Below, one piece after another: positions 1 to 53,940 of a DNA stretch of 64,000 bases. The stretch lies in the IMG/VR virus record IMGVR_UViG_3300030085_001980; one strand, 5' to 3'. Made by a program: the position numbers and the translations under genes. Source of the DNA: a virus. The notes under the pieces were generated by a model. The model was not told the origin of the DNA, ran no database searches, and saw nothing but the letters and a program-made list of their open reading frames with translations. The number at the start of each line of letters is the position of its first letter. Position 1 is the first letter of the stretch.

Positions 1-3000
1 ACCGTCACCTGGGATAACGAAATCAGGATAACGATTTCTCAGGCGACCAACTGCCTCTTCAGCAATCCAGTTGATGTTCTTACGAATAACCTCAGCACAA
101 TCTCTGAATGCCTGACGACCCAGGTCAACACCTTCAGTAGTCAGTTCAGATCTCCAGAGTTCTACCTCATCAGCAGTTGCAGAAGAAATGGTATGTGTTA
201 CATACGTAGCGTAGATTGCGTCAGTCTCCATTGCAAACGGTGCTTCACCGTCAAGTGCGAAGGAGGTGTTATCGTCGTCTACGAAGACAGTGGGGGGAGT
301 AAACGTAGAAGAGTACGTCGCGATTCCTTTACGGATAATAACGTTCTCCATCCAACCACCGAACGGACTTGCGTTGTTCCAAGCAGCACCAACTTTGATT
401 ACCTTATCAACACTATAGTCATTAGCGTCAGTGTAGTCGCTACCAACTTGTTGACCACCAACAAACAGTTTGGTTACGTTAGTTGCGCGAGTAAGTGCAA
501 TGTGATACCAGGTGTTAGCACCTTGATTAAGTGCTGAAGTACCAATGATAACGTCAGCACCTGCGATCGCTAATCTTACACTGTCATTCTGCAGTATCAA
601 GGTAAGTTGAGAATCAGATCCACTCGAACGGAAGTCGAAGAGAGTCTGTGTTCCAGTCAGTGATGTGGGACGAATCCACAGTTCCAGGGTGTAGTCTCCA
701 GTACCAAACGTTACGCGATCGGAGGTAGGGTAGGAAACATAAGAACTGGTACCAGAGAATTTCAGTGAAGCGTTGCCAGAAGCATATGTCAATGCATCCT
801 GGGTAACGTTAGATCTAGTCAGTTTGGAGTTTGTAATATACTCATTTGCCTGCAAGGTGCCAGTAATGTCCTTGGAGTAGATCCACTTGTTACCAGCATT
901 AGAACCGATAACGTCATAGGTTGCACCAGAGGTAATAGCGGTAATAACATCACCAAAGGCGAAGAATCCACCAGAGGACTTATCCTTATATGCGTGCTTG
1001 GTGCAGCGAAGTGTCTCACCATCTTGGAACGCATATGCTGGTTCGATACGAGGTACGTTACCGATAGCCCACTGATAAGTAGCGGGGTTTGCAGCAGTAG
1101 GATCCTGAAGAGTATCGGTGATAATCTTCATAAAGTTGGTGATAGCAGACACCTGGTTGACACAACCATTGGCGTAACCATCCAGAGCAGTTGTAGGAAC
1201 AGTTCTGGTGTAGGTTGCTTCAAAGTTTGCCAGAGTACCAGGAGATGCAGTAGTGCCAAGTGCGCCAGTAGCAATACCCATCAGGGTAGTGATAGAAGAA
1301 GCAACAGCAATACAAACAGGTGAAGTAGTATCAGCAGTGATTGTGTTGTCAGTTACCTGAACCCAATCGTGTGCGCCTTGCTTAACTATTGCATTGTTTC
1401 TCATCACTTCGATCGCCAGATCGCGTGCCTTGTTGAATGCAGTTACTGTGTCATCTTCATAACCAGCAACGTGAGCACCAACCATATACTTCCTGGTTGC
1501 ATCGTAAACAAAGTTGTTACCACCGTGTGCCAGGTTGTAAGTCATTGCTTCCAGCATATCCACGATGTCAGACAAGCAGTTGTTGTCTCCACCAGGTACG
1601 GTCAAGGAAGGATTGACAGTCTTAGCGTGATGAAGTGCTTCGTGAGCAATAAACCACTTGTTAGCAAGGATCAATGTACGAGCATCAGCGTGACTGTTAT
1701 CTACAACCGCGAACTCTTGAGTGATTTGGTTGTCGATATACTGCGTACGGGTAGTCCACAGTGGAGTATGTGCAATGTTTCTGATTGCTTTAATTGCAAG
1801 GTCACGTGCTTGATTGAAAGCATATACAGTCTGGTTTAGAGCACCATCCAGGTGATAAACCGAATTGCCCTGTACGTAAGTTGCTGCAGCATCCCAAACT
1901 TCAGAGTTGCCATCATATTCCAGTTGATATGCAACAACATTCAGGATGTCAACAATATCATCCTCACAATCACGGTCACCACCAACGGATTGAACCACGA
2001 ATGCAGGGTAGAAGTCCTTCATAATGCCCACTGCTTCTTCAGCAATGAAACGTGCATTCTTACGAATCAGATTAGCAGCATCATATGAACGCTGATCGTC
2101 TACACCTCTGAGAGAAGAGTTATTGAAGTAGATCTTCTTGTTGCGGATGTAGTCACCAGCAGCAAACTGGGAACCTGCCAGGTAGTTATAACGGATTTCC
2201 TGGTTTCTAACCTCTTCAAAGTCGAGGAAGTCTTGGTTGTTTGCAGTTTCACCATCGTACAACTCGGTCGGATTGATGACAGTCTCCGAAATATTGTCGA
2301 GAATGACGTTCGGATACGTGATAGAAGGAACACGCTGGAATACCAGACCAAAGAAAGTGGACGGAGGAGACAAATCGACCGTATCAATGATTTGCTGACT
2401 GACAGAATCCTGATAAGGAGCAATAGCTGACACAGTTGCAGCGATATTTGATCTAGCAGAGTAGATAATATCGTTGAACTTGAGTGCAAAATCACCAGTT
2501 TCGTATGCAGCAGTACCAGAAGTACGTGAAACGAGCAGTTCGTTACTGATTACGCCATTATTGAGGTTATTTTCTTCAATAACAGCAAAATTACCTGCCA
2601 AGTTTTTGATTGTTTCACCTTGTTCAAAGATGGTTTTGCTTGTCAGGTTAGTAACAGCACTCAAAACACCATCAAATCCAGTAGCAGAAGACAGAACATT
2701 GTCATTAATAGCAAATGTGCCTTCAATATTGACCACATCAATGTAATCAGTACCAGAATCAATGACAGTTGCAGTGCCTTCATTCTGCAAAGAACGTACA
2801 ATCTTACCAGCGGGGGGGAAGATGCCTGCAGTTGTGCTAAATGTATAGCGAGTAATCGCCATTTGGGTGTACGTTACCGTACGGAACTTGATTCTAGAAG
2901 GTGCTCTAGGGGGTTCATCAAACACAATGCTGGGTCCAGCAGTTGTAAATGACGTTCCAGGTGCCTGTGCAACACCGTTAATCAGAATAAGCATCTGATC

Positions 3001-6000
3001 ATCAGTTGCAGTAACAGATTCGCCTTCAACAGTCAGAGGGAACTGGGTCTTAATACCATTGAAATCGCTATCAATGTTATCCAGTTTCTTAACAATAGAG
3101 GTCAAAATTTCCTCAGAGTTAGTCAGACGCTTCTGTCTGAACAGAACTTCGGTATTGTTGAACTCAGTGTAGATCGGTTGTGCGTTAGCAAACGAGGTGA
3201 TCTTGTTAATATCAGTAGAACTGAAGATGTTGACCTCTTTAACAAGGTCAGAAATGACTTTACGTCCAGAAATATCCTTACCACCACTAAGTGAAAGTTC
3301 ACCGAACATATTGAAACCAACAGGGTGGTTAGTTTCGAGCAGTGAAGTTCTCCAATCGTTGATAGGAGTCTGAGACTTGACGACGTACGAGAAGTTCTGA
3401 TAGAAGTAGGAGTCTTGAAGCTTCTGGACAATCTCAGAAGGCTTACCCACGTCATCGATAAATTGACCAGTTGTGGTGGTCATAGAGTCGATATTCAACG
3501 TACCACGTGCGATTGAGAGGTTATCGATCAAACCAGATGCACGAGAGACCTGACCAGTAACTCTTTCACCAGGAGTCCAGGTTCCATCATAGTTTTCCAG
3601 TTTCAGGATACGAGGACCAATCTGCCAACCTTCGTTATTAGAAACGTAACCAGTTGCAGTTGCAGTTTCAATACTATTACCTTGATAGACCAGTTCGCCC
3701 TTCAGGAAGCGTGAGGTCTCAACGATTGCTTCAGCAACACCACCAAACACTTCAGTAAGAAGGATTTGACGACCTTCACCCTGCGTCAAGAATGTAATGA
3801 AGTTACCAGACTCAGCATCAACCTGAGTCAGTGCAATTCTCAACTGATCAGGTTCCAGAGAGTTTGCAGAACCTGCAATAGCATAGTACGTAGTGTTTGC
3901 ATTCAAACTGACCAAACCAGCAGAACTCGGTTTCGGCAGAATACCAACCGTAGAACCAAGATCTTCTGCTCTCAACTGAACAGCAGCACCAGTCGTGATA
4001 CCGTGCGGGAAGTTGAACTGCAGATAACCCAAGTCGAGGTTAACAACGTAGTTGAATTCGGACTTCAGGGTGACAGTCGGTTCAGAAGAGTAACCAGAAC
4101 CAGGGTTCTTGATGATAACTTCAGAAAGTCTGTTGTTCTTGACGATTGCTTCTGCTTCAGCACCAGTACCGCCACCACCTTCAATCACAACTCTAGGAAC
4201 AGAGGTGTAACCAGAACCAGGATCAGTGATCTTGATCTCTGACAAAATAGCGGTGTTAAACAGCTGGAGGTTTACAGGGAATGTAATTTCGGGTCTCAGA
4301 GTATAATCGTGAGAATAACCGAAACCAAATTCGTTGTTCTTCAGTTTCTTAATCTTACCGATGCTCTTACCTTGCAGGAAGACAGCAGCGCCTGAACCTT
4401 CATCAGGGATAACAACCTCAAGTGCTGCACCAGAACCAGCAAGCAGAGGTCCAAGGATGCCAGGAATAGCATCAACATCAATAGATGCAGTCTTATATCC
4501 TTTACCAGCAGATGTCAGAACGACATTTGTAATAGTTCCAAGCAATTCACCATCATCAGCAACTGTGATGTTACACAGAGCACCTTCACCGTCGCCCTCA
4601 ATAGGTACGTTGTAGTAGATGCCATTTACATATTCAGTACCGCCAGATGTGATACGGATTTTTTCAATCTCTCTATTGGATGCAATATCGGTAACGATAG
4701 GCAGTTTCTGATAGAATCCACCTGGGTTAACCAGTTTGATGTCAGAGATAGGTCCGATTGCCTTAGTAGAAGTCGTAGAGTACGACGCTCTGGTAAGACC
4801 CGTTTCAGTTTGACCCAAAGGTGCAGTGGATTTCTCAGGTTCGCTGCTCAACTCGAAGTTGAATTGAGTATCACTGAGGATTTCATTAATAGTGTACGTT
4901 CCCTTATATGGAGTCTGGATAACGTCAATAAACGAATCATCGCTAACAGGTGAGTTATCAGGGCTAGTTCTGGAAGGATCGAAGTAGTAGGAGATGTTAG
5001 TAACATCTTCGTTAACGATAAACTTGACCAGAGGTTTAGGTGATGTCTGATCAGTCAGTCCAGGAATACCTTCTCTAACAATGTTAACGAACGGATATTC
5101 CAGTTTGTACTGGTTATCCTTCGAGAAGGACATAAAGTATCCAAGGTTAGAAACATCATCCAAGTCAAAGATATATTGATGACCACGTACAAACAGAAGT
5201 TTGGGGTGCTTAGCGTAGATGTTTACACTACCAATAGTATTTTGTAAGAATGCAGGATCCTGTACAGCAACAGATCTCAATTTGTACGTAAACTCTCTAC
5301 TATTAAAGATTTCTTGAACAAAGAATGATCCAGCGTACTCATTTGTTGAGAATCCTTCAACAAAGATGATTTCATTGACTTCAAAGTTGTTCTTACTGCT
5401 AGAGGCACAGTAAACAAGATCAGTGTATGACAAAGCACCACTAGGAATAACATCCTTATCAAGATTAGATGTCAAGGTAAACTTCTTAACACCAACCAGA
5501 CCAGCAAATGTCGCAATCTTGTGGGTAGCATCAAATGTCAATACGAGACCAACAGCGGCAGCATCAATCGTGTCACCCTTAATATAAACAGAATCTGCGT
5601 AGATCTCATCAATTTTAATGATGTAGTCAGTAGGACTAAACTCTTTCCAAGTTGCATACTGTGCAAGAATGCCACCAGCATACGCAGTGTTATTGATGTC
5701 TACATCAAAGGAACCAGCAATTCTAGTAAACACCCAGTTAACAGAACCGTCAGAAACCGTACCTACATTGTGAGTAGGTGCAGTTACTCCAGACGTACCA
5801 GTGCTAGATGCGGTGTAGATCTTACCATCGTTATAAACCTCATCACCAGTGGTGTATGGGTTGTTATCACCCCACTGAGGAATTGTTGTTTCTACAGTAA
5901 AGACCTGTGCAATCGTATTTTCATCGTTTGCAGTAGACTTCAGTTTTTTCTGGGTATCAAAGTTACCAATGATCTTACCGATTTTTACAGAGTTAGTGCC

Positions 6001-9000
6001 AACTTCAACGATGGTTCCATATGCGTTAACAACATCTTGACCGCCAATGGTTTGATATTGTTGCAGGATAGAACCCTTAGTAAACGTTGCAGGTTGATTA
6101 AACGTTACTGTCTTAACAGCATCGATGCTGGTGTACAGAGCGTCTCTCAGATAGAACTTGGGAATAACTTTAGTATCCAAAAGCAATTTCTTACCCAACG
6201 GAGTGGGAACAGTTGCAGTTCTAGTCTCATAAGTCTGCTCAACAGAAGAGAACGAGAAGATACCCTCTACGTTATTGGATACAACATCGCCGTAGTCGAG
6301 GATTTGGATACCAGCAGGTCCAAGTTCCCAATCAGCAGCAGTGAGAACTTGTGACTGATAAGTGAAATCGTTGATTGTAGATGCAACGATAACCGACATA
6401 CCTTGCTCAACAGTGTTGAGTGCATACGTGCCAGTCTTAGTTTGTTCTCTATCGAGTTTGAAAGTGAATGCGGATACTTCCTTGTTGGAACCAGTTGCTT
6501 GTCCAGGAGTAAAGGTGTCGTCATACTTAACCACCTGAGAGATTGATACGTTATCAACCCAACCACCAAGAGAGGTTGTAACAACGGGTGAAGCAACACC
6601 CAGCATACGTACCTTCTCAAGATTGGTATCGACAGTCGTACTTGTGATGCTGATTTCTTCGTTACCAGCAACATATACCTTATAAACGTAGTTACCAACG
6701 CTAGGAGAGGACTTAACGAAAGCAACGTGTACAAATCCTTGGTTGTTAAACGCTGTCCACATAGCAGTGCTTGCGGAGTAGTACGTATTTGCACCCAACT
6801 CCAATACCAACTTACCAAAGTTGGGACTTGTGGAATCACCATCAACACTCAAAGTTGCATTGGTACCTGTGTTAGGAATAACTTGGAACAGGAGTGGTTT
6901 AGATGCTTGTGCATTGTATTGAGTGGTGCCAATAGCCATCCAAGCTTCGCAAGTCCAATCAGTTGCAACATCAGCAGATCCATAATCAAGCAGGACTGTA
7001 TTTGCAGCAGCAGTTGTTGATGCAGATTGAGCACCATACTTGAACTTAGAAGCGTCTAAGGTGGGAGCAGTACCCCAAGTAACTGTCAGATCATTGTTAT
7101 AAGTCGAATCTGCGCTATCGGTAGTCTCGAAATCAAGGATAGCGATTTCGTTAGTTTCGATCTTGTTACCAACAATGATGGTATCACCAGAGTTATCATT
7201 TGTAATAGATGTTGGTTTGAATCCAATACCCTGATCTTGCTTAACATAAGCAGCAGTCAGTACGTTGTTGGTGTTCCAAGAGACCTTGAAGATAACCGCA
7301 CGGTGATCATTATATGAATACTTAACATATGCACCGACATCAATGTTACCAAAAATATCGAACTTGCAACCAGTCGAGTGAATATCATCAAAAGTTGCAC
7401 CAGTTGGAGCAATAATCTTAGCAACTGAAGGAGTCTTGAGATCATCAGGACTAAACTTCATATAGAGAATACCGACTCTGTTACCACTAGAAACGTTGGT
7501 AGCAGTAGCAGTTACATATCTAGATCCATAATCATCCTGAGTCATCTTAGGATTGGTGAATCTATATGCAGCATTTCCAAATTGACGACTCCACTGAACC
7601 TCAATAGTTGCAGTATCGTAGTACGTTTCACCAATAATGATATTACCAACACCAGCAGGGTCACTTTCACCAACAAATACAGTCTTATCATTACCGATGT
7701 AATGAAGATCAGTTAGTTTCTCAGTGCCACTTGCAGAACAAATCTTACGCTTCTCTTTTACAGAACCATCAAGGTTCAGCAAACCGATCCACATATCATC
7801 TGGACTCGGTGAGTTGGTATCAGTAGTACCACCAACATAAATCTGACCGTCTTCGTCAATAGTGACAGAAGAGATATAGTCACGACGAGTAGCACCAGAA
7901 ATACCAGCAATCTCACGCTGCCATACAGGAACAGCAGTAGGATTGTTCAGACCATCAAAACCAGACCTATACTTAGCAACAACCAAGTCGGGGTTGTGAG
8001 TCAGGTTGGTAGAGTTTGGAATAGTCTCACCAACTACGTAGATATTGTGGGGAGTTGAGTTCTCAATGTAGATTCTATTGAAGATGCACTTCTTATCACC
8101 TGTGGCAGGTGCCAGAGGCAGCATAGTACGTGTCCAAAGCAGTCTTCCATCACTGTTGAACTTGGCAATCAGACCACCAGAGTCTCCACTTACATCATCA
8201 GCGTGACCAACAACATAGAATGTACGGTCATCTGCAATAGCGACATCAACAATCTTACAAACTCTATTTTCGCCACTGCTATTTTCTTTCAGGACTGAGA
8301 GAGCATATTGTGCTTTCTTAAATCTCTGTGGGTGTGAAACACGAATTTCTGGGGCTTCATTTTCGTCATATCCAGAACCAGAGTTGATGATATTGACTTT
8401 CTTAACAGCACCAGATTCTTCTCTCGTAATAGAGAGTGCAAAGTCCTGACCAGAACCACTAACAACCTGGTAAGTCGGAGGAATATCTTCAGAATAACCA
8501 AGACCTTCTTGAGAAACCGTTACTCTCTCCACACCAGAGACGACTTTAACTCTGTACGTCTTATTGGTTTGATCGATAATAGGAATACTATCAACGATAA
8601 TTTCATCACCAGCTCTCAGATCGTGCTCATCAACTGTAGTGATTCTGCCGTAAGGGAGATCATCAATGATGGATGAAGTATATCCAGTGATGTCAATACC
8701 TTTAACAGAATTGACCTTTGCAGATGCACCATAACCACCAGTGCCTTCATCATCAAAGTACAGTTTGTCATTGACTTTATAAGATCTACCAGCATTCTCA
8801 ACCACAAATCCACTAATTTGAGCATCCTCAAACTTAGTAGTAGTGTCAATTTCAATATCAACCTGAGATCTAGTAGAGACACGAGGGTAGTAATCGAAGA
8901 GTTGCAGCACAGGTTCTTCTGAAATCTCAATCATCGCATCGATTTCAGTCTGCTGAATAACTCCGTCTCTATTACTATCTTCGATCTCGAAGATGAAAGT

Positions 9001-12000
9001 ATCACCAAACTCAGTTACAAGAGTATCGGTATCTGCATTAGGTTGACGATCAATGTCAATATCAACATCTTGATATGGATCACGGAAACGAACAACATCA
9101 CCAGGAATGTTTGTTTGTACTGCATCCTGTGAATAGTTCCACTTATCAGGTGTGGAATACAGTTGAGGACCACAAACGTACGGGAAGACAGGAAGACCTG
9201 CTTCTGATGCATCAATAGCAACAAAATAAGCGTAAACACCTTCAGGGTATTCTGGTGTCTTACAATATCTACCATTATACTGGTCAAGATCACCCTGCTG
9301 GAAGACGTACTCGTAGTCTTCAATAAATGAACCAGCTGGTTCAGCTGTTAGCAGAGGACCGTCAGCACGGACAGGGTTGGGGTTGGTATCTTGATCGTAC
9401 AGAAGAACTGGTTTGATTCTGTAAGAAGATACAACTCTCTTGATACCAGAAGACTGGTCAGCAGCATCAATGTAACCATAAGGACCATAGATGGGGTTAC
9501 CATCATATGCCCAACCAATGATTGGAGAGTGTCTGAGACCTGTCTCAAGTTCTCTCAGATTACCAGTTGCAGGATCACGGAAAACATTATCACCAAGAAC
9601 ATACCTAAGTTGCTTGGGATCTGAGAGGTGAGCATACTCACCACCATACTGAGTGTTAAAACCAGCGAACACATAACCACGGGAGGGATCGAAGAGACCA
9701 TCCAGTTCTGTCTGAAGGTTCTTAGTCCACTCAAATACATTTGCGTTGAACACAGCATTCTCACCAATCGCCTCAAGACGAATAGTGGTAGTACCAGTTG
9801 CATAACCAACACCACGGTTTTCAACGGTAACACCGAGAACTTTACCAGCGTCCTCACCAAACTGACCGATAATTGCTTTACCGACAGCACCATAACCTTC
9901 GCCGTTGATAACAACTCTTGGGGGAGAAGTGTATCCGTTACCAGAAGCAATAATAGCGATGGATACAATACGACCATTAATGATGATCGGTTGTGCAACC
10001 GCACCTTCACCAGAGTTCAGTTTGATGTCAGGGGAAGATGTATATCCAGAACCAGATGAAGTAATAGCAATACTTTGAATAGGACCACGTACTTCTGCAG
10101 TTGCAGTTGCACCAGTACCATTACCACCAGAGATAGACACTGTGGGAGAAGAGGTGTATCCCTCACCAGGTGTCTCAACAAGAATCTTACTTACAACACC
10201 ATTGGTAATAACTGCGGTTGCAGTAGCGCCGAAACCGCCGCCACCAACAATAGATACCAGAGGTTGTGTGGTGTATCCTGTACCACCATTAGTAACGTCA
10301 ACAGAGAACAGAGAACCATTAACTGTTACATCTGCAGAAGCACCAGACCCTTCACCACCTGTGATTTCAATGAGTGGTTTATTTGCAGCGTCATAACCAG
10401 TACCAGCATTAGCAATATCGATACTGGTAACACCACCAAATTTAACTTTGGTTTGTGACTTATAAGACCAGGCAGCAACACCGTTAACCCAAGCACCGAT
10501 AGGACCGAAGTTAATATCTTCACGACGAGAGACCGTCTCAACATTCAGAGGGAAACGAGACAGTTTACGCTGGTTACCAGGAAGAAGTGCAGATCCAATA
10601 AACGGACCAACCTTATAGTTGGGAATACCAGTTGTTGCAATATAAGCGTAATCGCTATTAAAGAATGTGTTCTGTACGTTAGTAGTATAATCTTCAATAG
10701 AAGCATTAATACTTTCTACATCAGACTTACCCTTATTCAAGTCAACAGACATCAGGATATTACCCTGAGGTGCGTTAGGAGCAGGAGCAGCAATCTGATA
10801 TGAGAAAATAGTGTCGCTAATACGTGAAGTGACAGCGAACGTACCATTAAAGATCGTTGGGTTTGCACCGTAGATAGTTACGGAGTCACCAACAAGCAAA
10901 CCGTGATTATTTGTTGTATATACAGTTGCAGTTTGATTATTCAGACCACCAGGTTGGATTTCATTAACCTGAATCAGTTTTTTGACGTTATACAACCAAG
11001 AAGTGACCTTTTCATCTGTAGAAGATGAACCAAGAGACGCAACATTCAGTTTATCTGTGGGTAGGTAGTAAGAACCAGTATCATTCAGGACAGTACCAGT
11101 TGCCTCGGCAATACCAAGAATACGCATCTTGACTTCGGTATCAAGATTACGGTTGATATAAACAAAGATGTCAGATTGAATTTCGGAACCAGCATCCCAA
11201 TCTTCAACAACACCGTTCTTAGAACGAGTACACTCGATGAACTGGTTAAGGGATTTCTCTTTATATTGTACGTACTCTTCATCACCGAGGATGATTAGAC
11301 CATTTCTTTCTGGCCAACCAATGGTAGAGTCAACAGTGATGATTGAATCTGTTTGGTTAACTGGTTCTACGAGAGTCGTCTTATAGGGAATCGTGAACTT
11401 ACCCTCAAGAGTTTCCTCGGAAATGGACAGTTCGTAGATAGTTCCTACACCAGTGTTGATAGCAATAACGTTTTCAACCAGGCAGGTTGCGTTTCTAACA
11501 TTAGTATCAACAGCATCCGCGTACTGGAACAACTGTGAGTCAATGATATTGCGGGGATCACCGCTAATCAGTTCAACACGAAGAATCGTCTCAACGCTCC
11601 AAGTTGCGTCAGACGGTTTGATGAGTTCGTCTTTAGGATATGATACGTCAACATCTTCGGAGAACAGGATCTTGAAGAGATACTCTGTTGCAATCTTCGT
11701 ACCCTTGGAGAGGTAGAAGTCTTTAATGGTCTTGATGATCTGCGGAGCATTGACTTTTTTATAGTCAATCGGCGCATTAGGCAAGAATTGATTTACAAAA
11801 CGCTCATACAGGGTACGTGCAAAGAGTGCATCGAGGTTTTCGATGACTGTACCTGCCTCGTGAGAGGATTGGATGCTATCAACTTCCTGAGTGAATACTT
11901 GGTTACCTCTGATGTCGTAGTTAGCAACACCAGATACACCACGCTTACAATTCTTAAATTGTGAAGGCTTATAGTTCTCGCCGTGAGAATGCAGGGTAAA

Positions 12001-13836
12001 ACCAGTAATTTCACCAAAACCAACGTCACAAGACGCTGCAGCTGCCTTTGGTTCCGCAATAAAGACTGTAGGAGGTTCAGATTCGGAATATCCATCACCA
12101 AAACTGGTAATATTGATGTCAGTGATCTCTCCGTTGAAGATTGTTGCTACAGCAGTCGCGCCAGTACCACCAATGGGATTACCAGACAGATCTTTGCGAT
12201 TATCGACGATATACACGGAAGGAGCGTCTGTATAACCAGATCCGCCCGTCAAAAGTTCAATATCCGTCAATTTACCGCCAGTTACGGAAACATCGAGGAT
12301 TTGTGCGCCAATGGGATCAATAATTCTGCATCTAGGCGCAGAAGTGTAACCTCTACCACCAGAAATGATCGTAACGCCGTTAACTCTGCCCTGATCGTCT
12401 AAAGTTGTTACGGCAGAAGCGGAAATTGGGTTTACAGCGTCTTCAGTCGGAGGATCGATATAAACTGCAGGAGGAGTTGCATAATTAAGTCCTCTTTCAA
12501 TAACAGTGATGGAACCAGGTACAATAGATCCATCAGAGTCAATCTGAGAGTCGGAAATCTTTGCTCCGCCAGGATTTATGAATGAAATCGAAGGGATAGA
12601 GTCATATCCAGAACCAGAAGACTGTACGTTGATTGCAGTGACTTGACCACTCTCATCATCGACAGTTACAGTTGCTTTTGCAGGAATACCAGAGGGATCT
12701 GCAGGATTATCAAAGATAATGATAGGTGGGTTCACCGAAGTGTAACCCTGACCACCATCAATCAGAGTAATATCCTTAATACCATTGACAAGTGCCTCAG
12801 CAGTGGCATTTTCGCCAGTAGTATCTGCAGGAGTTAGGATTGTGGTCTTAGGAGTAAAATTAATGCGGTATCCACTACCACCATTTTTTACAATGATGTC
12901 TTTGAGTTGACCGTTCTCAATTTTACTAATTGCACTAGCTGCTTTACCAAATTCTGGAGCAATTAGTTCTACAGCACGTACTGACAGAACAGTACCAAGA
13001 GAAAGTGCTTGTTTGAGGATAATCTTATCCTCGTAGATGGTATAGTCACTAAATGGTGTTTTTACAACACCATCAACTGCTACCAAGCAAGAAATGGTAG
13101 ACAGGGGAATATAAGGTGCACCACCAAGGGTGAGAGAATATACTTTTTGATCTTGATTATCAACTGCAACAGTTAGGTGATCCAGTTTACGAACTGGCAC
13201 ACTGGTATAACCAATAAGGTACTCAATACGGGTAACAGCAGTAGAACCCTGAATAATTACTGGAGGAGTTTGGAAACGGATGTTAGATCCATCAAGGAAA
13301 TAGTCTACATCTGGTTCCAGTTGAATTCCATTGACAATAACGCGCAGATACTCGGCAGCAGAGGGCGTTACAGGAGTTCCGAGGAGTTTTAGAGGGAAAG
13401 ACGTACGACTTCCGTCAAACAACAACTTGATACTCTCAAGTTCTTGGATCTTCTTGTTAAATTCGGCAAGATTGACTCCAGGAGTGAAAACAACCTCTGG
13501 AGACTTGGAAATCTCTTCATAGTAGATGATTTCATTGTCAATCTTGATCGTACCGTCTCTTTCGAGGAAATAATCGATGTTTTCTACATCGATATTAATA
13601 TCGGAAGGTCCAACACGGTTCAGAACGATAGATTCCGACCCAATAAAGTTCGGATCGTACTCACCCGAACTAATATCGGTGTACGATAAGATGTTATTGA
13701 GAATATCGTAAGGTTTACCAGATTTCTCCTGAGATCTGTAGTATTCTACAATCAGATCAACAAAAGCTTGATCCTCTTCCTTGATAAAGGCAGGAATCTG
13801 GTCCTTTACTCTCTGGGATACCTTAATTGACTTCAT
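1..13836 (-). CDS. gp7: Giant baseplate wedge protein (gp7-like), at least 4612 aa, 3' end beyond the window
   Basis: ATG at 13836 (MKSIKVSQRVKDQIPAFIKEEDQAFVDLIVEYY). Hand translation found no stop down to base 1, and the ORF track lists no terminated ORF in this frame. Contains gp7-type segments (IKDFYLSKGT, HPVGFNMFGE) and many G-x-G-Y repeats. Lies directly downstream of gp6. Confidence 0.88.
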   Translation of the reverse strand, partial: MKSIKVSQRVKDQIPAFIKEEDQAFVDLIVEYYRSQEKSGKPYDILNNILSYTDISSGEYDPNFIGSESIVLNRVGPSDINIDVENIDYFLERDGTIKIDNEIIYYEEISKSPEVVFTPGVNLAEFNKKIQELESIKLLFDGSRTSFPLKLLGTPVTPSAAEYLRVIVNGIQLEPDVDYFLDGSNIRFQTPPVIIQGSTAVTRIEYLIGYTSVPVRKLDHLTVAVDNQDQKVYSLTLGGAPYIPLSTISCLVAVDGVVKTPFSDYTIYEDKIILKQALSLGTVLSVRAVELIAPEFGKAASAISKIENGQLKDIIVKNGGSGYRINFTPKTTILTPADTTGENATAEALVNGIKDITLIDGGQGYTSVNPPIIIFDNPADPSGIPAKATVTVDDESGQVTAINVQSSGSGYDSIPSISFINPGGAKISDSQIDSDGSIVPGSITVIERGLNYATPPAVYIDPPTEDAVNPISASAVTTLDDQGRVNGVTIISGGRGYTSAPRCRIIDPIGAQILDVSVTGGKLTDIELLTGGSGYTDAPSVYIVDNRKDLSGNPIGGTGATAVATIFNGEITDINITSFGDGYSESEPPTVFIAEPKAAAASCDVGFGEITGFTLHSHGENYKPSQFKNCKRGVSGVANYDIRGNQVFTQEVDSIQSSHEAGTVIENLDALFARTLYERFVNQFLPNAPIDYKKVNAPQIIKTIKDFYLSKGTKIATEYLFKILFSEDVDVSYPKDELIKPSDATWSVETILRVELISGDPRNIIDSQLFQYADAVDTNVRNATCLVENVIAINTGVGTIYELSISEETLEGKFTIPYKTTLVEPVNQTDSIITVDSTIGWPERNGLIILGDEEYVQYKEKSLNQFIECTRSKNGVVEDWDAGSEIQSDIFVYINRNLDTEVKMRILGIAEATGTVLNDTGSYYLPTDKLNVASLGSSSTDEKVTSWLYNVKKLIQVNEIQPGGLNNQTATVYTTNNHGLLVGDSVTIYGANPTIFNGTFAVTSRISDTIFSYQIAAPAPNAPQGNILMSVDLNKGKSDVESINASIEDYTTNVQNTFFNSDYAYIATTGIPNYKVGPFIGSALLPGNQRKLSRFPLNVETVSRREDINFGPIGAWVNGVAAWSYKSQTKVKFGGVTSIDIANAGTGYDAANKPLIEITGGEGSGASADVTVNGSLFSVDVTNGGTGYTTQPLVSIVGGGGFGATATAVITNGVVSKILVETPGEGYTSSPTVSISGGNGTGATATAEVRGPIQSIAITSSGSGYTSSPDIKLNSGEGAVAQPIIINGRIVSIAIIASGNGYTSPPRVVINGEGYGAVGKAIIGQFGEDAGKVLGVTVENRGVGYATGTTTIRLEAIGENAVFNANVFEWTKNLQTELDGLFDPSRGYVFAGFNTQYGGEYAHLSDPKQLRYVLGDNVFRDPATGNLRELETGLRHSPIIGWAYDGNPIYGPYGYIDAADQSSGIKRVVSSYRIKPVLLYDQDTNPNPVRADGPLLTAEPAGSFIEDYEYVFQQGDLDQYNGRYCKTPEYPEGVYAYFVAIDASEAGLPVFPYVCGPQLYSTPDKWNYSQDAVQTNIPGDVVRFRDPYQDVDIDIDRQPNADTDTLVTEFGDTFIFEIEDSNRDGVIQQTEIDAMIEISEEPVLQLFDYYPRVSTRSQVDIEIDTTTKFEDAQISGFVVENAGRSYKVNDKLYFDDEGTGGYGASAKVNSVKGIDITGYTSSIIDDLPYGRITTVDEHDLRAGDEIIVDSIPIIDQTNKTYRVKVVSGVERVTVSQEGLGYSEDIPPTYQVVSGSGQDFALSITREESGAVKKVNIINSGSGYDENEAPEIRVSHPQRFKKAQYALSVLKENSSGENRVCKIVDVAIADDRTFYVVGHADDVSGDSGGLIAKFNSDGRLLWTRTMLPLAPATGDKKCIFNRIYIENSTPHNIYVVGETIPNSTNLTHNPDLVVAKYRSGFDGLNNPTAVPVWQREIAGISGATRRDYISSVTIDEDGQIYVGGTTDTNSPSPDDMWIGLLNLDGSVKEKRKICSASGTEKLTDLHYIGNDKTVFVGESDPAGVGNIIIGETYYDTATIEVQWSRQFGNAAYRFTNPKMTQDDYGSRYVTATATNVSSGNRVGILYMKFSPDDLKTPSVAKIIAPTGATFDDIHSTGCKFDIFGNIDVGAYVKYSYNDHRAVIFKVSWNTNNVLTAAYVKQDQGIGFKPTSITNDNSGDTIIVGNKIETNEIAILDFETTDSADSTYNNDLTVTWGTAPTLDASKFKYGAQSASTTAAANTVLLDYGSADVATDWTCEAWMAIGTTQYNAQASKPLLFQVIPNTGTNATLSVDGDSTSPNFGKLVLELGANTYYSASTAMWTAFNNQGFVHVAFVKSSPSVGNYVYKVYVAGNEEISITSTTVDTNLEKVRMLGVASPVVTTSLGGWVDNVSISQVVKYDDTFTPGQATGSNKEVSAFTFKLDREQTKTGTYALNTVEQGMSVIVASTINDFTYQSQVLTAADWELGPAGIQILDYGDVVSNNVEGIFSFSSVEQTYETRTATVPTPLGKKLLLDTKVIPKFYLRDALYTSIDAVKTVTFNQPATFTKGSILQQYQTIGGQDVVNAYGTIVEVGTNSVKIGKIIGNFDTQKKLKSTANDENTIAQVFTVETTIPQWGDNNPYTTGDEVYNDGKIYTASSTGTSGVTAPTHNVGTVSDGSVNWVFTRIAGSFDVDINNTAYAGGILAQYATWKEFSPTDYIIKIDEIYADSVYIKGDTIDAAAVGLVLTFDATHKIATFAGLVGVKKFTLTSNLDKDVIPSGALSYTDLVYCASSSKNNFEVNEIIFVEGFSTNEYAGSFFVQEIFNSREFTYKLRSVAVQDPAFLQNTIGSVNIYAKHPKLLFVRGHQYIFDLDDVSNLGYFMSFSKDNQYKLEYPFVNIVREGIPGLTDQTSPKPLVKFIVNEDVTNISYYFDPSRTSPDNSPVSDDSFIDVIQTPYKGTYTINEILSDTQFNFELSSEPEKSTAPLGQTETGLTRASYSTTSTKAIGPISDIKLVNPGGFYQKLPIVTDIASNREIEKIRITSGGTEYVNGIYYNVPIEGDGEGALCNITVADDGELLGTITNVVLTSAGKGYKTASIDVDAIPGILGPLLAGSGAALEVVIPDEGSGAAVFLQGKSIGKIKKLKNNEFGFGYSHDYTLRPEITFPVNLQLFNTAILSEIKITDPGSGYTSVPRVVIEGGGGTGAEAEAIVKNNRLSEVIIKNPGSGYSSEPTVTLKSEFNYVVNLDLGYLQFNFPHGITTGAAVQLRAEDLGSTVGILPKPSSAGLVSLNANTTYYAIAGSANSLEPDQLRIALTQVDAESGNFITFLTQGEGRQILLTEVFGGVAEAIVETSRFLKGELVYQGNSIETATATGYVSNNEGWQIGPRILKLENYDGTWTPGERVTGQVSRASGLIDNLSIARGTLNIDSMTTTTGQFIDDVGKPSEIVQKLQDSYFYQNFSYVVKSQTPINDWRTSLLETNHPVGFNMFGELSLSGGKDISGRKVISDLVKEVNIFSSTDINKITSFANAQPIYTEFNNTEVLFRQKRLTNSEEILTSIVKKLDNIDSDFNGIKTQFPLTVEGESVTATDDQMLILINGVAQAPGTSFTTAGPSIVFDEPPRAPSRIKFRTVTYTQMAITRYTFSTTAGIFPPAGKIVRSLQNEGTATVIDSGTDYIDVVNIEGTFAINDNVLSSATGFDGVLSAVTNLTSKTIFEQGETIKNLAGNFAVIEENNLNNGVISNELLVSRTSGTAAYETGDFALKFNDIIYSARSNIAATVSAIAPYQDSVSQQIIDTVDLSPPSTFFGLVFQRVPSITYPNVILDNISETVINPTELYDGETANNQDFLDFEEVRNQEIRYNYLAGSQFAAGDYIRNKKIYFNNSSLRGVDDQRSYDAANLIRKNARFIAEEAVGIMKDFYPAFVVQSVGGDRDCEDDIVDILNVVAYQLEYDGNSEVWDAAATYVQGNSVYHLDGALNQTVYAFNQARDLAIKAIRNIAHTPLWTTRTQYIDNQITQEFAVVDNSHADARTLILANKWFIAHEALHHAKTVNPSLTVPGGDNNCLSDIVDMLEAMTYNLAHGGNNFVYDATRKYMVGAHVAGYEDDTVTAFNKARDLAIEVMRNNAIVKQGAHDWVQVTDNTITADTTSPVCIAVASSITTLMGIATGALGTTASPGTLANFEATYTRTVPTTALDGYANGCVNQVSAITNFMKIITDTLQDPTAANPATYQWAIGNVPRIEPAYAFQDGETLRCTKHAYKDKSSGGFFAFGDVITAITSGATYDVIGSNAGNKWIYSKDITGTLQANEYITNSKLTRSNVTQDALTYASGNASLKFSGTSSYVSYPTSDRVTFGTGDYTLELWIRPTSLTGTQTLFDFRSSGSDSQLTLILQNDSVRLAIAGADVIIGTSALNQGANTWYHIALTRATNVTKLFVGGQQVGSDYTDANDYSVDKVIKVGAAWNNASPFGGWMENVIIRKGIATYSSTFTPPTVFVDDDNTSFALDGEAPFAMETDAIYATYVTHTISSATADEVELWRSELTTEGVDLGRQAFRDCAEVIRKNINWIAEEAVGRLRNRYPDFVIPGDG

Positions 13837-13857: not shown

Positions 13858-15954
13858 TTAGAAGCAAGCGTCGAATTCTGGGAACTCAAACACTGTCGTC
13901 GGATAATCAATGATATTTATCGAGGTTCCGTCGAAGTTAATTGGCGTAAAGTCGAACGGATCGAAGTTCGGAACTACTGTTCCGTCAATGGTGTAGTCAA
14001 TCGTGATGACTTGTGGGTTAAAGATCGTAGGATCAACACCTGTACCGATATTTACGTTTCCAGACGCAATCAAAGCAGTAATCGGAATACGATTTGTGCC
14101 ATCAGGCGTAGTTTGGACGTTAATAGGTCCAAGACAAACTTCGCCACTCTTATAGTTGACTGTTCCAACACCTTTTTTGAGGATAACCTCTTTCTCATCA
14201 AGTTTTGAGACCATAATCAGTTCACCCTTACCGTCATCACGTACATTTACAGGCAAAAGTGCCGATGTATCGTTATCGATGAACGTACTGGTGCTCAGAA
14301 CTGAGTTTGTAGTCAACTGTTGTGACTGAACTGCCAGTTCGAGAAGATTTTCGGTGTATCCAGTCGAATAGAACGTACCTGACTTAACAGAAGAGAACTT
14401 AGGATCGCAAGTTCCGCCCCCACCAGCGCCAGTACCAGTTGTACCACCAGAAATGTCACTAGGATTGACAATTTCGTTGTTAAAATCGACACATTGGGTA
14501 AACGTACTGCCAAATGGGAACCCTTCGACGTTCAAACCGAGGGTCATTGAGGTCTGATTACCAACAATCGCGTTATTTGAGTTATCTACCATCGACTGGA
14601 AGGCAGATGTGTCGATTCTGCCGTTAAATCTGTTGGAAGAACCCTGATTATTGTATTGATCGATAGCAGACAACACAGTTGTCGCCATTTCATTGTTGGA
14701 AAGGTTGGTTCTAGTGCCATCGAAGAAGACGTACGACTTCGGACGGATGTATAGAGTGGTAGGATCGATGATGACTGGTTCGATTGCCGCCATCGAATAC
14801 TTCAGAAGGTCATTCTTGATACGCTTCTTAGTTGTTTCGTTCAGTGCTGCACCACTTTTGGTTTTGACAGCAACAAATACCTTGCCATAGATCGGGGGAG
14901 CAAGTCTTTCACCACCATAGGCAGTAACAGACTTTGCCATCGGATATACCATCTTGGTGATATACTCATAGTCCGACTCAGTAACCGCTCTATTCTGCGC
15001 TGAGAATGCCCTAGGAGCGTTATATTTAATGCTAACGATGTCTTCCCCTACCTCACCGTCTTGAGAGGCGTCTACGGTCGTTACAGAGATGTTAGAGGAG
15101 GGTATGATGCGACCAGTGTTATCAACGGCGCGACCAATGAAAGTAAACTTTTTACATCCATTAGCAAGGGGACCATCTGTACGTACATACTTGAATCTGA
15201 TGATCTCACCAGCAATCAATTCTCTACCGATGATACCATCACCAAAGATGACTTTATATCTCAGGTCATCAGTCTCTTCTAGAAAATAACCACGAGTAGT
15301 ACCATCAACTCCAACAATATCAGTAATCCTATTGTACGTGTCGATCTCCTCTGATTGAGCATTAGGAGAAATACTAACGTAAAGCAGATCTGTATCAACA
15401 TTATCAACGGGAATATCATAACCACGCTTCTTGACATCCTCAACGGTGTACTTGTACGTTAACAAGTTGCCTTGATAAACGACAGTTTTATTAAATTCTG
15501 CAATGCCAGTAGTCTGATCTACAGCAACCGTCAGATCTTGAGGCAGAGTGAACAGATAAGATTCACCATCCACGGAAGATACGAAAGTATCACCCTGTGG
15601 CAAGGTTACTGTTGAGGGGAAAGTTGTGCTACTACCAACATATTGCGTCTGTACAGCGAAATGCAAACACGCTTTTGACGCTTTGATGGATCTTGGTGTA
15701 TAATTAAGTTGCTTCGCAATCTTAACAACGTTGTCTCTAATCGTTGCAGATTCAAGGAACGCCTCATTCATCGCCATATTAGCGTTGAACGCAGCATAGT
15801 AAGTGTTATATGCCAGTACGTCTAACAAATACGACGCAGCAGAACCCTCAAAGTCGTAATCAGTAAACTCAGTTCTAGTTCTCAGATACGATCTGATAGA
15901 TTCTTTGATCTCTGTAAAGTCCAGAGATGTTAAATTTGAAGGGATTGCTGCCAT
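13858..15954 (-). CDS. gp6: Baseplate wedge subunit gp6
   Basis: LDFTEIKESIRSYL...FTDYDFEGS...LLDVLAYNTYY and AQNRAVTESDYE are typical gp6 / baseplate-J motifs; adjacent to gp25. Confidence 0.93.
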   Translation of the reverse strand: MAAIPSNLTSLDFTEIKESIRSYLRTRTEFTDYDFEGSAASYLLDVLAYNTYYAAFNANMAMNEAFLESATIRDNVVKIAKQLNYTPRSIKASKACLHFAVQTQYVGSSTTFPSTVTLPQGDTFVSSVDGESYLFTLPQDLTVAVDQTTGIAEFNKTVVYQGNLLTYKYTVEDVKKRGYDIPVDNVDTDLLYVSISPNAQSEEIDTYNRITDIVGVDGTTRGYFLEETDDLRYKVIFGDGIIGRELIAGEIIRFKYVRTDGPLANGCKKFTFIGRAVDNTGRIIPSSNISVTTVDASQDGEVGEDIVSIKYNAPRAFSAQNRAVTESDYEYITKMVYPMAKSVTAYGGERLAPPIYGKVFVAVKTKSGAALNETTKKRIKNDLLKYSMAAIEPVIIDPTTLYIRPKSYVFFDGTRTNLSNNEMATTVLSAIDQYNNQGSSNRFNGRIDTSAFQSMVDNSNNAIVGNQTSMTLGLNVEGFPFGSTFTQCVDFNNEIVNPSDISGGTTGTGAGGGGTCDPKFSSVKSGTFYSTGYTENLLELAVQSQQLTTNSVLSTSTFIDNDTSALLPVNVRDDGKGELIMVSKLDEKEVILKKGVGTVNYKSGEVCLGPINVQTTPDGTNRIPITALIASGNVNIGTGVDPTIFNPQVITIDYTIDGTVVPNFDPFDFTPINFDGTSINIIDYPTTVFEFPEFDACF

Positions 15955-16617: not shown

Positions 16618-16762
16618 GCTTACCCTGACCCCTGTAACGCTTGCGTGCCTTATTACGGGAACTTGAAGCGTACTTGGTGTGCTGACCGTTACCTTGACGA
16701 GTTTTCTTGGGAACCGATTCAATCAGCTTCTGACCAGAGAGACCAACTTTTGCGCGTGCCAT
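16613..16762 (-). CDS. Small basic protein, 49 aa (not in ORF track)
   Basis: Hand translation MARAKVGLSGQKLIESVPKKTRQGNGQHTKYASSSRNKARKRYRGQGKR; fills the gap between the PAAR gene and the 16556 ORF. Confidence 0.8.
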   Translation of the reverse strand: MARAKVGLSGQKLIESVPKKTRQGNGQHTKYASSSRNKARKRYRGQGKR

Positions 16763-16797
16763 AGAATTGTGTGTAGGACTCGCAAATTATAGCACGA

Positions 16798-17331
16798 TTA
16801 TCCAGCGAGGACAGTAGGAGAACCATATGCAACCACTGACTTACAGGGCCAAGAAACGAATGGTTTACCAATGCCAAGAGGGTCTAGCATTCTACCAATA
16901 GGTCTCTTCAGAGCGTACACTGTAAACGTTGTTGCCTCACACATACGGAAGTGACCAACACCACCCATATCTTCCACTGTGAGCATACCGCAAGTAGTGG
17001 GTGTTGGGATAATACACATTGCCTTACCACAAGGGCACAGGTAATTAATGATGTTTGCCGTGGTTGATGTATGTGGTGTAAACGTGTCACCAAACAACAT
17101 AACGGGCAAACCGTTGACTAGCACAGTTGCTCTAAGAGGATTGACCGCTTCAAGTGGAATTAGCGGTTGAGGTGCCCACCAACAAGTAAGGTCCTTAACA
17201 ACGATGCCAAAGGGGATAGGAGGCGTGCCACAGGGTTGTTGATTGTGGATAGATGCGGGTACGGGTAGTCCGTGTCCAGAACAAGGAAGACCGTTAAGAG
17301 ACGCAACTGGTTTTAGAATTCCTAATGCCAT
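16798..17331 (-). CDS. PAAR-like spike tip protein (gp5.4-like)
   Basis: CSGHG, TVLVNGLPVMLFGDTF.PH, RPIGRMLDPLG and C-terminal VAYGSPTVLAG; baseplate context. Confidence 0.8.
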   Translation of the reverse strand: MALGILKPVASLNGLPCSGHGLPVPASIHNQQPCGTPPIPFGIVVKDLTCWWAPQPLIPLEAVNPLRATVLVNGLPVMLFGDTFTPHTSTTANIINYLCPCGKAMCIIPTPTTCGMLTVEDMGGVGHFRMCEATTFTVYALKRPIGRMLDPLGIGKPFVSWPCKSVVAYGSPTVLAG

Positions 17332-30437: not shown

Positions 30438-30688
30438 CAGGTAGTGATACTCGTGCCAAAATCTCCTGATTCGATTGCATCCACGACTGACACTGGTGAG
30501 GATTCATACAAGGGAGATTCGTATGTTTTTGATTCGTACAAGGGGAGTCCTTCTTTTTTCCTGTGCAGTCGGTGCAACTCCCAGTACACGATTGCGAGGT
30601 GTTGTTGCAAATAGTTTTTTGTTTCAAGTTCATTAACTCTGCATCTGATTGATTCAAGATCTGCCATCAGTTGTTCTAGTTCAGTCAT
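30437..30688 (-). CDS. Hypothetical protein, 83 aa
   Basis: Coiled-coil-like ORF overlapping both neighbours by a few nt. Confidence 0.6.
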   Translation of the reverse strand: MTELEQLMADLESIRCRVNELETKNYLQQHLAIVYWELHRLHRKKEGLPLYESKTYESPLYESSPVSVVDAIESGDFGTSITT

Positions 30689-31253
30689 AATGACATTCCA
30701 AAAGTGTTCCTCGATTCACTATACCTTGTGGCATAGCGTTAAATGATAGCGTACTGCGATGTGTGCCTGGGAGTGTATAGTGTTCCACATAAGATGGGAA
30801 CAAAATTAGATCACCCTTCACACCTTGTGCAGCATATGTCATCTGTTGATTACTGATGACACATATACCTGACTGAGCATTGATTGCAGGCGAATCAAAG
30901 TACGTTGGTGAGCAATGTGTCAGATATAATATACCTGACACGAAACTATTCGGATGTTTGTGTGGGTGGTGTTCCTCGTGTGGTTCACTTACATTAATCC
31001 ACGACAATGTGGGTTTGAAGCGATCACACTGAAACTGATACAAATCTCTATAATCATCCAGTGCCACCTGAATTTCGTTGAATAGTCTAACGAATCGTGG
31101 TAGATCGTGGAGATGAGTGTTTGCTGTTTGCTTGAGATTTCCGACATTGTACTTAGTATCAATGGCGTAATCTACGACTGATTCTACAACTTCAGGATTG
31201 ATAGTGTAACGTACAATATCTGTTGAAAGTGCAGAAGTTACTACCCTGTCCAT
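30681..31253 (-). CDS. 2OG-Fe(II) oxygenase, TIGR02466-like
   Basis: SWIN...HHPHKHPNSFVSGILYL...GDLILFPSYVEH...RSTLSFN. Confidence 0.88.
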   Translation of the reverse strand: MDRVVTSALSTDIVRYTINPEVVESVVDYAIDTKYNVGNLKQTANTHLHDLPRFVRLFNEIQVALDDYRDLYQFQCDRFKPTLSWINVSEPHEEHHPHKHPNSFVSGILYLTHCSPTYFDSPAINAQSGICVISNQQMTYAAQGVKGDLILFPSYVEHYTLPGTHRSTLSFNAMPQGIVNRGTLLECHYD

Positions 31254-33308: not shown

Positions 33309-33501
33309 ACTGAGTCGATACGTGTTTTAAGTGCAAAATGTGAGAAACCTCATCAATTACTGATAGGTCAACTCTAAGTTGCTCATCATCAATAAGTCCT
33401 TTATTGTGACGAGCGTAGAGATCTTGCAGGTACAGTAATACTGACTTGCGAAGGATCTCAATCTGTCTGTCATCCAATAGACGCGATTTTAGTCCGAACA
33501 T
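33295..33501 (-). CDS. Hypothetical protein
   Basis: MFGLKSRLLDDRQIEILRKS...; start trimmed. Confidence 0.55.
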   Translation of the reverse strand: MFGLKSRLLDDRQIEILRKSVLLYLQDLYARHNKGLIDDEQLRVDLSVIDEVSHILHLKHVSTQYETE

Positions 33502-33991
33502 TTGAACTGTCGTGGCAACGGTATTCGTAATACTGTCCGACGAGTTTGACTTCGCCATTTCTCCAAGCAACGGTCTGCCTAAGTCTAGCGCGGTCATCGT
33601 CGATTAGGCGAATTTCTTCACGAAATATCCAGGAATCATAACTTGTGTGGAACACTACTGTGTCGTTGTCAATAAATGACGTATCACAGATCGTTGCAGA
33701 GTCAGTCATATACCCTTGAGATCTGTAAAACTTTCCGTTGCCATACCCACACTGCATTTCACCAGATGAAGATGGTTTACCATCCTCTAATACGCTGTCC
33801 CAAACAAGACGAACATATCCCTGGTTGTAATCATCTGGAATCGCCTCTTTTTCAGCATCTGTAATATCTATACGTACACTTAAGTCCGTATAGATCATCT
33901 GTGGTTTGAATTTATCCTTTCCAGCATATAGGTATCTCCTATCGCTTTTCCAATCACCTTCAGCACGTTGAAACCATTCATTAAGGGTCAT
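33470..33991 (-). CDS. cpeS: S-type phycobiliprotein lyase (CpcS/CpeS/CpcV family)
   Basis: EWFQRAEGDWKSDR, RLVWDS, FYRSQGY, VFHTSYDSWIFREEIRL, RLRQT and YEYR follow the CpcS/CpeS motif order (FF..S.G.W.S.R / V.W / L.R..GY / L.T.Y....EE / R.R / EIR). Subfamily uncertain. Confidence 0.75.
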   Translation of the reverse strand: MTLNEWFQRAEGDWKSDRRYLYAGKDKFKPQMIYTDLSVRIDITDAEKEAIPDDYNQGYVRLVWDSVLEDGKPSSSGEMQCGYGNGKFYRSQGYMTDSATICDTSFIDNDTVVFHTSYDSWIFREEIRLIDDDRARLRQTVAWRNGEVKLVGQYYEYRCHDSSNVRTKIASIG

Positions 33992-40477: not shown

Positions 40478-40485
40478 AATGATTC

Positions 40486-43321: not shown

Positions 43322-43347
43322 TTTGCCTGTTGAATTTCCTCAAAAAC

Positions 43348-53251: not shown

Positions 53252-53506
53252 TCAAAATGGGAGTTCTTCTTCACAGACTACAGACTCAAGTTCAAATATG
53301 ATTGGGTGGCATTGCTCAATAACGAGATACTCACTTGCTTTCATAATTTCTTCGAGACTAATATAAGTCTGCTTGTGCGCTAATTCTATCACGTCATCTG
53401 TGGGATCGTCAACCTCGTCAAAGGTGAACGGTAACCCATTTAGATACCAGATACGTGCTAATCCTACCTGGGTGAGGAAACGGTAGTCGGAATAGATTTT
53501 GAACAT
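53252..53506 (-). CDS. Conserved hypothetical protein
   Basis: RIWYLNGLPFTFDE...SEYLVIEQCHPIIFE. Confidence 0.7.
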   Translation of the reverse strand: MFKIYSDYRFLTQVGLARIWYLNGLPFTFDEVDDPTDDVIELAHKQTYISLEEIMKASEYLVIEQCHPIIFELESVVCEEELPF

Positions 53507-53940
53507 CGGATGAACTGAAACGGACCTCTATTTGTACCCCAGATCATTTTACCTTGATCGTTCCATCCCTTGTCATCCGTATCAAATGTCTCCTTAGTTA
53601 GGAGAATCTTTGATTCCACCTTGTTTCCTTTACCGTTGACAGCACCAGGTAAGGTGCTTCCTTGGTACCCGTGCTCAGACTCTGTGAACACTAGATCAGG
53701 CATCTCCTCATCATCAATCCAGGTTTTCAACGTGATGTTGTTTGGATTACTGATCAGAGAGTGACGACGTTGACGATAGATTTCACCGTTCCAGTCGTAC
53801 CATTGCTTTGATCTTAATGTATCGTCTTCATCTACGTACCACCAGTAGTGGATATACGCAAATGACGATGGATACATTTGGGCTTGTTTTAGGTTGTGCC
53901 AGTGTCCTAGCAAGAGATCGAGAAAAGCATCCTGATCCAT
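53464..53940 (-). CDS. cpeT: T-type phycobiliprotein lyase, phage CpeT
   Basis: LLGHWHNLKQAQMYPSSFAYIH, IYRQR, DKGWNDQGKMIWG...GPFQF are CpeT/CpcT motifs. Confidence 0.88.
   Translation of the reverse strand: MDQDAFLDLLLGHWHNLKQAQMYPSSFAYIHYWWYVDEDDTLRSKQWYDWNGEIYRQRRHSLISNPNNITLKTWIDDEEMPDLVFTESEHGYQGSTLPGAVNGKGNKVESKILLTKETFDTDDKGWNDQGKMIWGTNRGPFQFIRCSKSIPTTVSSPR

Follow-up and report, generated by a model that had tools for sequence, protein, structure and literature searches.

The 64,000-nucleotide (nt) stretch analyzed here, which we call the window, is from virus record IMGVR_UViG_3300030085_001980, a marine virus of cyanobacteria, and all coordinates are window positions. Its first part is occupied by a giant open reading frame (ORF) on the minus strand (1..13836), with an ATG at 13836 and a 3' end that runs off the window start, so that more than 4612 amino acids (aa) are encoded. 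A gp6 homologue lies directly upstream, at 13858-15954. PHROG baseplate wedge families match the giant ORF with E-values of 1e-20 to 1e-30, virion structural families match it too, and Pfam finds in it a YHYH domain, a beta-propeller and two Laminin_G_3 domains. Given the adjoining gp6, the PHROG matches and the Pfam modules, the ORF encodes a giant baseplate protein in gp7 position, from a T4-like cyanophage; PF23786 gives only a partial match, of 20.9 bits, which is below the family cut-off. Our subject is the C-terminal third of this protein, which is built from modules with the fold of beta-type phycobiliproteins, reduced to the A-H helical core without the X/Y dimerization hairpin. Phycobiliproteins are light-harvesting antenna subunits of cyanobacteria, red algae and cryptophytes.

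The starting point was an earlier note, made from the sequence alone, which described three helical repeats near the end of the giant ORF. All the peptides it quoted are found in the minus-strand frame of that ORF, the four codons it named (1966-1968, 1576-1578, 1312-1314 and 1162-1164) all encode Cys, and a search with hidden Markov models (HMMs) recovers its repeats as two complete copies and a third at the window edge, all on the minus strand. Repeat 1 (1747..2103) spans phycobiliprotein-like helices A to G, carries the E-helix motif C-E-D-D with its Cys at 1966-1968, and scores 223 bits against the seed HMM and 155 bits against profile A1, described below. Repeat 2 (1366..1707) also spans helices A to G and has the motif C-L-S-D, with Cys at 1576-1578; the two repeats share 44% identity in an alignment of 107 aa (E 1e-23). 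Of repeat 3 (1..123), an HMM match, helices A and B are present before the window edge cuts it, and this part (123-1) shares 50% identity with the first part of repeat 1. Two further helices on the same strand close the first two repeats. Closing helix 1 (1258..1326), with an N-terminal Cys (1312-1314) like that of beta153/158, is the H helix of repeat 2, and closing helix 2 (1105..1173), with an N-terminal Cys at 1162-1164, is presumed from the nesting pattern discussed below to be the H helix of repeat 1. Between this module and repeat 3 lies a Laminin_G_3, or concanavalin-A-like lectin-fold, domain (337..753, minus strand; PF13385, E 2e-16, 60.9 bits).

What lies beyond the window edge can be judged from relatives. 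A near-identity DNA search of the phage collection with the window gave no match; uncultured IMG/VR contigs encode proteins 54-88% identical to the giant protein, and in such contigs the orthologous open frame extends to as many as 8864 aa. The orthologous contigs have seven phycobiliprotein-like units in the giant protein, where the earlier note had counted three, and four of the seven fall beyond the window. In an orthologue of 87% identity (L018/L004) the E-helix motifs are C-Q-D-D, C-L-S-D, C-L-R-D, C-I-R-D, C-E-D-D and C-I-D-D, followed by a seventh unit without the Cys; the full unit of repeat 3 is seen here, with the motif C-L-R-D.

Are these units truly related to phycobiliproteins, or do they only look alike, as amphipathic helices of no common ancestry may do? 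With an 800-aa piece as query, PF00502 matches at residues 233-298, which is repeat 2, with 24.1 bits and so passes the curated Pfam threshold of 22.2 bits; the score drops to 16.1 bits when the whole 4612-aa protein is the query, and two relatives, P0059 and P0112, reach 27.7 and 30.3 bits. A single-sequence phmmer search of the Protein Data Bank (PDB) matches phycoerythrin beta chains only, placing the repeat 2 Cys on Cys82. Profile A1, built from 26 repeat copies of the window, S-PM2, S-RIM44, S-CREM1, S-BM3 and uncultured relatives, matches 164 PDB sequences, and the best 60 are all phycobiliproteins, with a best E-value of 8e-7 from sequence only; its register agrees with the K-C-x-R-D-x-G ... 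L ... G-G of C-phycocyanin alpha (CpcA). Profile A4, which represents the gp7-type subclass and includes the first closing helix, has phycobiliprotein beta subunits as all of its best 56 PDB matches (best E 5e-7). The resemblance proposed in the earlier note is thus well beyond chance, with one correction: the note had likened the E helix to CpcA, and the window subclass matches beta subunits best. A search of NCBIfam with the domain gave no match, and an ESM Atlas feature search gave no usable one.

The predicted structure tells the same story. A first AlphaFold model, from eight orthologues, had a predicted local distance difference test (pLDDT) score of 66 and was superseded by a model from 25 diverse homologues, with a pLDDT of 82.6 and a predicted template modeling score (pTM) of 0.80. 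The best 50 Foldseek rows for this second model are all phycobiliprotein beta chains. In VIA-align, model residues 142-290, that is repeat 2 with closing helix 1, superpose on beta chain residues 34-172/177 over 130-145 residues at 1.9-2.3 Å, with Z-scores of 15-17. Repeat 2 itself (model residues 142-241) superposes on the beta chain from residue 34 onward, and closing helix 1 (model helix 269-289) completes the A-H core, aligning up to chain residues 172/177; closing helix 2 (model helix 322-340) has a pLDDT of about 89-94. The globin-fold phycobiliprotein domain that the earlier note expected is therefore recovered, with helices A, B, E, F', F, G and H of the core covered. Chance resemblance might still be argued from the Foldseek E-values, which run only from 5e-3 to 0.1 and never reach 1e-3 though every top row is a phycobiliprotein, and from the frequency of middling Z-scores among helical bundles. 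Against it stand the profile E-value and the PF00502 match, obtained without any structure, and a Z-score that is still 14.9 at rank 50, with every row a phycobiliprotein and the whole A-H core covered. We regard chance as effectively refuted; the phage units are almost certainly homologous to phycobiliproteins and share their fold.

The units nevertheless differ from their antenna relatives. They have in common with the beta subunits (CpeB, CpcB and the cryptophyte phycoerythrin and phycocyanin beta chains) the motifs of helices A and B and a globin-like A-H core that superposes at about 2 Å. The N-terminal X/Y hairpin, which builds the alpha-beta monomer, is absent: alignments begin at chain residue 33-36, no separate hairpin precedes the units, and hence the interface of the alpha-beta heterodimer is lacking. 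Some superpositions bring the first helix of repeat 1 (model residues 10-38) to the place on repeat 2 where the Y helix of a phycobiliprotein would pack, with only about 7-12 extra residues aligning. Whereas phycobiliprotein beta subunits are free chains of 17-20 kDa, the phage domains are embedded, and nested, in a giant virion protein.

That one domain is nested in another was also suggested in the earlier note, and the arrangement of the orthologues bears this out, for the number of closing helices equals the number of units in each group. The 87%-identical orthologue has two closing helices after repeats 1-2, one after repeat 3 and three after repeats 4-6. In the distant IMG/VR relatives L066-L070 the F'-F loop of a C-A-R-D unit has taken up two whole units along with their closing helices, and the interrupted unit continues after them; the insertion point there differs from that of the window. 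In the window itself, repeat 2, together with its own H helix, presumably interrupts repeat 1 after helix G and before helix H. A host precedent for some of this is the core-membrane linker ApcE, in which a phycobiliprotein-like domain, part of a large multidomain protein and interrupted by a loop insertion, binds bilin autocatalytically. ApcE thus illustrates that a phycobiliprotein domain can be fused into a large scaffold protein and can tolerate an insertion. It is a component of the host phycobilisome, however, whereas the phage protein belongs to the virion and has entire domains set inside one another.

How much of the bilin site is preserved? The E-helix Cys of the phage units aligns with Cys82/84 in phmmer and in profiles A1 and A4. 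It is invariant in alignments of 26 copies and of 25 homologues, and the Cys of repeat 1 in particular is invariant in the 25 homologues. For repeats 1 and 2, with C-E-D-D and C-L-S-D, the earlier note's reading is accurate: a Cys stands at the alpha84/beta82 position, the Asp remains and the Arg is gone. The picture is different for the family at large. Among 1607 domain copies from 151 proteins, of which about 1,520 have a residue at the scored positions, the Cys is conserved in 97%, the Arg(+2) in 93% and the Asp(+3) in 99%; C-x-R-D is found in 1393 of 1521 classified copies, the Arg is also present in the orthologous repeats 3 and 4, and the two complete copies of the window belong to rare Arg-less classes. 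Acidic residues precede the E-helix Cys of the phage domain in HMM alignments.

The phage units resemble beta subunits not only in the Cys at the Cys82 position and the Asp that follows but also in a second Cys, at the start of helix H, as in beta153/158. The Cys of closing helix 1 aligns with that of G-D-C-A-A-L-A-S-E in Gloeobacter phycoerythrin beta (2vjh_B), a stretch that alone is worth only 5 bits but is co-linear with the rest, and the structural alignment agrees with profile A4 in placing it at the beta153/158 site; the earlier note had compared it with beta153/155. The note had further proposed looking at conservation of the cysteines across homologues. The Cys of closing helix 1 turns out to be invariant in 11 gp7-type sequences, down to 36% identity, and that of closing helix 2 is kept in most of the 25 homologues. 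Loss of the Arg and presence of a closing-helix Cys are weakly linked (r = 0.31). Could the two cysteines of a unit simply form a disulfide? This seems unlikely, because in the phycobiliprotein fold, which the units should share by homology, the two Cys sites are at opposite ends of the domain.

The domain is widespread in cyanophages. An exhaustive profile search gave 1107 representative proteins at E <= 1e-3, of which 301 reach E <= 1e-30, and in a collection of 50,697 phage records the domain is present in 342-346, all of them cyanophages and of the T4-like kind. Some family proteins have tail-fibre-type N-termini, and some are placed after gp8 in T4-like contexts. The largest array seen is in P0003, a metagenomic tail-fibre-type protein of 6382 aa with about 35 tandem phycobiliprotein-like units, nearly all C-x-R-D; its N-terminal region looks beta-helix-like by eye, and the shorter relative P0059 has a sub-threshold DUF1565 match. 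A full-text literature search found no description of phycobiliprotein-fold domains in cyanophage virion proteins. The gp7-position giant resembles the T4 baseplate wedge protein gp7 in that its gene follows gp6 and it is matched by PHROG baseplate wedge families, but it is four to eight times larger and has modules (YHYH, beta-propeller, lectin-fold and phycobiliprotein-fold) that our searches detected in cyanophage records only. The YHYH domain (PF14240, 104 bits) is at 9205-9729 on the minus strand, gp7 residues 1370-1543, in the same giant as the beta-propeller repeats and the two lectin-fold Laminin_G_3 domains. Most likely, a cyanobacterial host was the source of the modules, which after their capture were multiplied in the virion proteins of T4-like cyanophages.

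The company the domain keeps, in the baseplate wedge, in "short tail fibre" and tail-fibre-like proteins, and next to the lectin-fold Laminin_G_3, raises the possibility that the old bilin cleft now binds something else (a glycan of the host surface, a metal or another protein of the virion, for example) and functions in recognizing the receptor or in assembling the baseplate. The conservation of one polar face of the E helix (C0, D3, D14, G18) would fit such a site. We consider this decidedly improbable: among the structural matches no ligand of the fold other than a tetrapyrrole was found, the top matches all being bilin proteins, and many tandem copies speak against a specific receptor site.

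The window encodes two bilin lyases, both on the minus strand. One is a CpeT-family (T-type) bilin lyase gene of 158 aa (53464..53940; PF06206, 52.2 bits against a cut-off of 21). The T-type lyases, phage ΦCpeT and host CpcT among them, are enzymes and not homologues of the domain; those of the host serve the Cys153-type site of beta subunits (PMC10452541), and the CpeT of the window is a candidate enzyme for the beta153-like Cys of the phage units. When the domain profile and PF06206 were run against 20 complete cyanophage genomes, both domain and cpeT were found in 11, the domain without cpeT in 1 (P-SSM7), cpeT without the domain in 0, and neither in 8. With shared ancestry left uncorrected, the one-sided Fisher p for this association is 7e-5 for all 20 genomes, 4e-4 within Kyanoviridae, and 0.03 for the ten genomes not picked for a lyase. 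The cpeT gene occurs in 257 phage records, all cyanophages, and in S-PM2 and S-RIM44 it is directly upstream of the repeat-bearing giant gene. A tighter link, between cpeT and the closing-helix Cys, was not found: P-SSM7 has the Cys-bearing helices without cpeT, and in the P-SSM4 fragment a regular expression detected none. The P-SSM4 record (NC_006884) contains at 16642-17064 a 148-aa ORF that scores above the CpeT family cut-off; P-SSM4 is stated to lack cpeT in a 2010 review (PMC2984593). In five orthologous IMG/VR contigs, which are fragments of 12-46%, searches for CpeS and CpeT found neither.

The second is a CpeS-like (S-type) lyase gene of 173 aa (33470..33991; PF09367, 43.9 bits against a cut-off of 23.3). 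S-type lyases were considered as supporting evidence and rejected, since CpeS-like genes occur in only 13 phage records and all five such phages tested have neither the domain nor cpeT. The window phage is unusual in having a CpeS-like gene, cpeT and the domain together; its CpeS-like gene is probably a host-directed auxiliary gene that is not tied to the domain. That gene overlaps its upstream neighbor by 4 nt and lies inside a run of 2-oxoglutarate (2OG)-Fe(II) oxygenase genes. The co-oriented, tightly packed run (30681-41964, minus strand) includes two tryptophan halogenase genes (38831-40477 and 40486-41964) and at least six 2OG-Fe(II) oxygenase or DUF6445 genes, and is downstream of glycine-rich fibre-like genes (42521-47816); its genes may form an operon for modifying proteins or metabolites. 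Bilin reductase was rejected as a correlate in its turn, P-SSM2 having the reductase without the domain, and S-PM2 and S-RIM44 the domain without the reductase. Among the phage bilin genes scored, then, only cpeT tracks the domain. The role of bilin genes has been described as unclear in Prochlorococcus phages (PMC2984593), and a further review (PMC10452541) takes the same view of phage bilin genes.

Does the virus particle carry pigment? It may, because the domains are true phycobiliprotein relatives that keep the attachment Cys. Four observations speak for a pigment: exactly the three bilin-contacting residues are kept where overall identity is about 20%, each domain has a single near-invariant Cys, the hosts all contain bilins, and cpeT tracks the domain. 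That the C-x-R-D copies of the family, at least, carry a bilin strikes us as quite possible, if short of probable; that one sits on the two Arg-less copies of the window is doubtful.

Several observations weigh against a pigment. Repeats 1 and 2 are without the propionate-binding Arg. In the B-E loop 5-7 residues of phycobiliproteins are missing, which sets the phage units apart from beta subunits, and there are no equivalents of the beta Asn72 and Arg77/78 region. The family has near-invariant polar residues of its own, Asp(+14) at 97%, Asn(+20), and Tyr(+30) at 99%, none of them a phycobiliprotein feature. As many as 35 copies are strung together in family proteins of up to about 7000 aa, an array that looks like a structural repeat. 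No report of colored or fluorescent cyanophage particles was found in the literature. The cpeT statistics ignore shared ancestry, and P-SSM7 has the domain and the closing-helix Cys and lacks cpeT. Finally, P-SSM2, with a bilin reductase and neither domain nor cpeT, and the five S-type-lyase phages without the domain indicate that phage bilin genes do not generally need the domain as a target.

An alternative is that the module is free of pigment. The fold might have been captured once and reused as a rigid helical block, much as immunoglobulin or fibronectin repeats are, to lengthen the proteins of baseplate and fibre. In that case the Cys, Arg, Asp, Asp(+14) and Tyr(+30) would form an internal polar network or an interdomain contact, and there would be no ligand site. 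Long arrays, invariant polar residues peculiar to the family, the shortened loop, the loss of the X/Y hairpin, the persistence of Arg-less subclasses (43 copies are C-x-D-D), the nesting of the domain inside itself in the manner of a scaffold, and the silence of the literature on colored particles all accord with this, and we hold it, tentatively, to be a possible explanation, a little less likely than bilin binding. It has difficulty however with three bilin-contacting residues at 93-99% conservation in a domain so diverged overall, and with one near-invariant Cys per domain, which is unusual in an extracellular structural repeat. Nor does it explain why the domain is confined to phages of bilin-containing hosts, or its association with cpeT.

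If a pigment is present, how might it come to be there? The giant protein would be made late in infection, in a bilin-rich cytoplasm, where the E-helix Cys (Cys82-like) and the closing-helix Cys (Cys153-like) would receive thioether-linked bilin. Attachment might be by the phage CpeT together with host lyases, or autocatalytic. The pigment would stabilize the module and may make the periphery of the baseplate light-responsive. The earlier note had also offered a role as docking decoys, for which the analyses of the window and its relatives turned up no evidence.

A light-responsive baseplate calls to mind the light-dependent adsorption of some cyanophages. P-HM1, P-HM2 and S-PM2 need light to adsorb, an effect that is independent of photosynthesis and of unknown mechanism, whereas P-SSM2 does adsorb in the dark (PMC6628666). 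P-HM2 has 6 copies of the domain, S-PM2 has 13 and P-SSM2 has none, though three or four phages make an anecdote and not a test. One might imagine that bilins bound covalently to the module arrays of baseplate and fibre, and loaded by the CpeT of the phage, act as a photoreceptor that gates adsorption in S-PM2, P-HM1 and P-HM2; we regard this as speculative and unlikely.

It is unexpected that the phycobiliprotein fold, complete with attachment residues, should recur in the baseplate and fibre proteins of cyanophages more often than any other repeat. Two old puzzles, why cyanomyoviruses carry cpeT and how some of them attach only in the light, become testable at the bench. A virion pigment, if real, would provide a target for the unexplained phage lyase gene cpeT and could explain light-dependent attachment, and the particle would be the first chromophorylated virion. 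If the pigment is absent, the cyanophages instead show clearly how a photosynthesis protein of the host can be recruited for use as a structural repeat.

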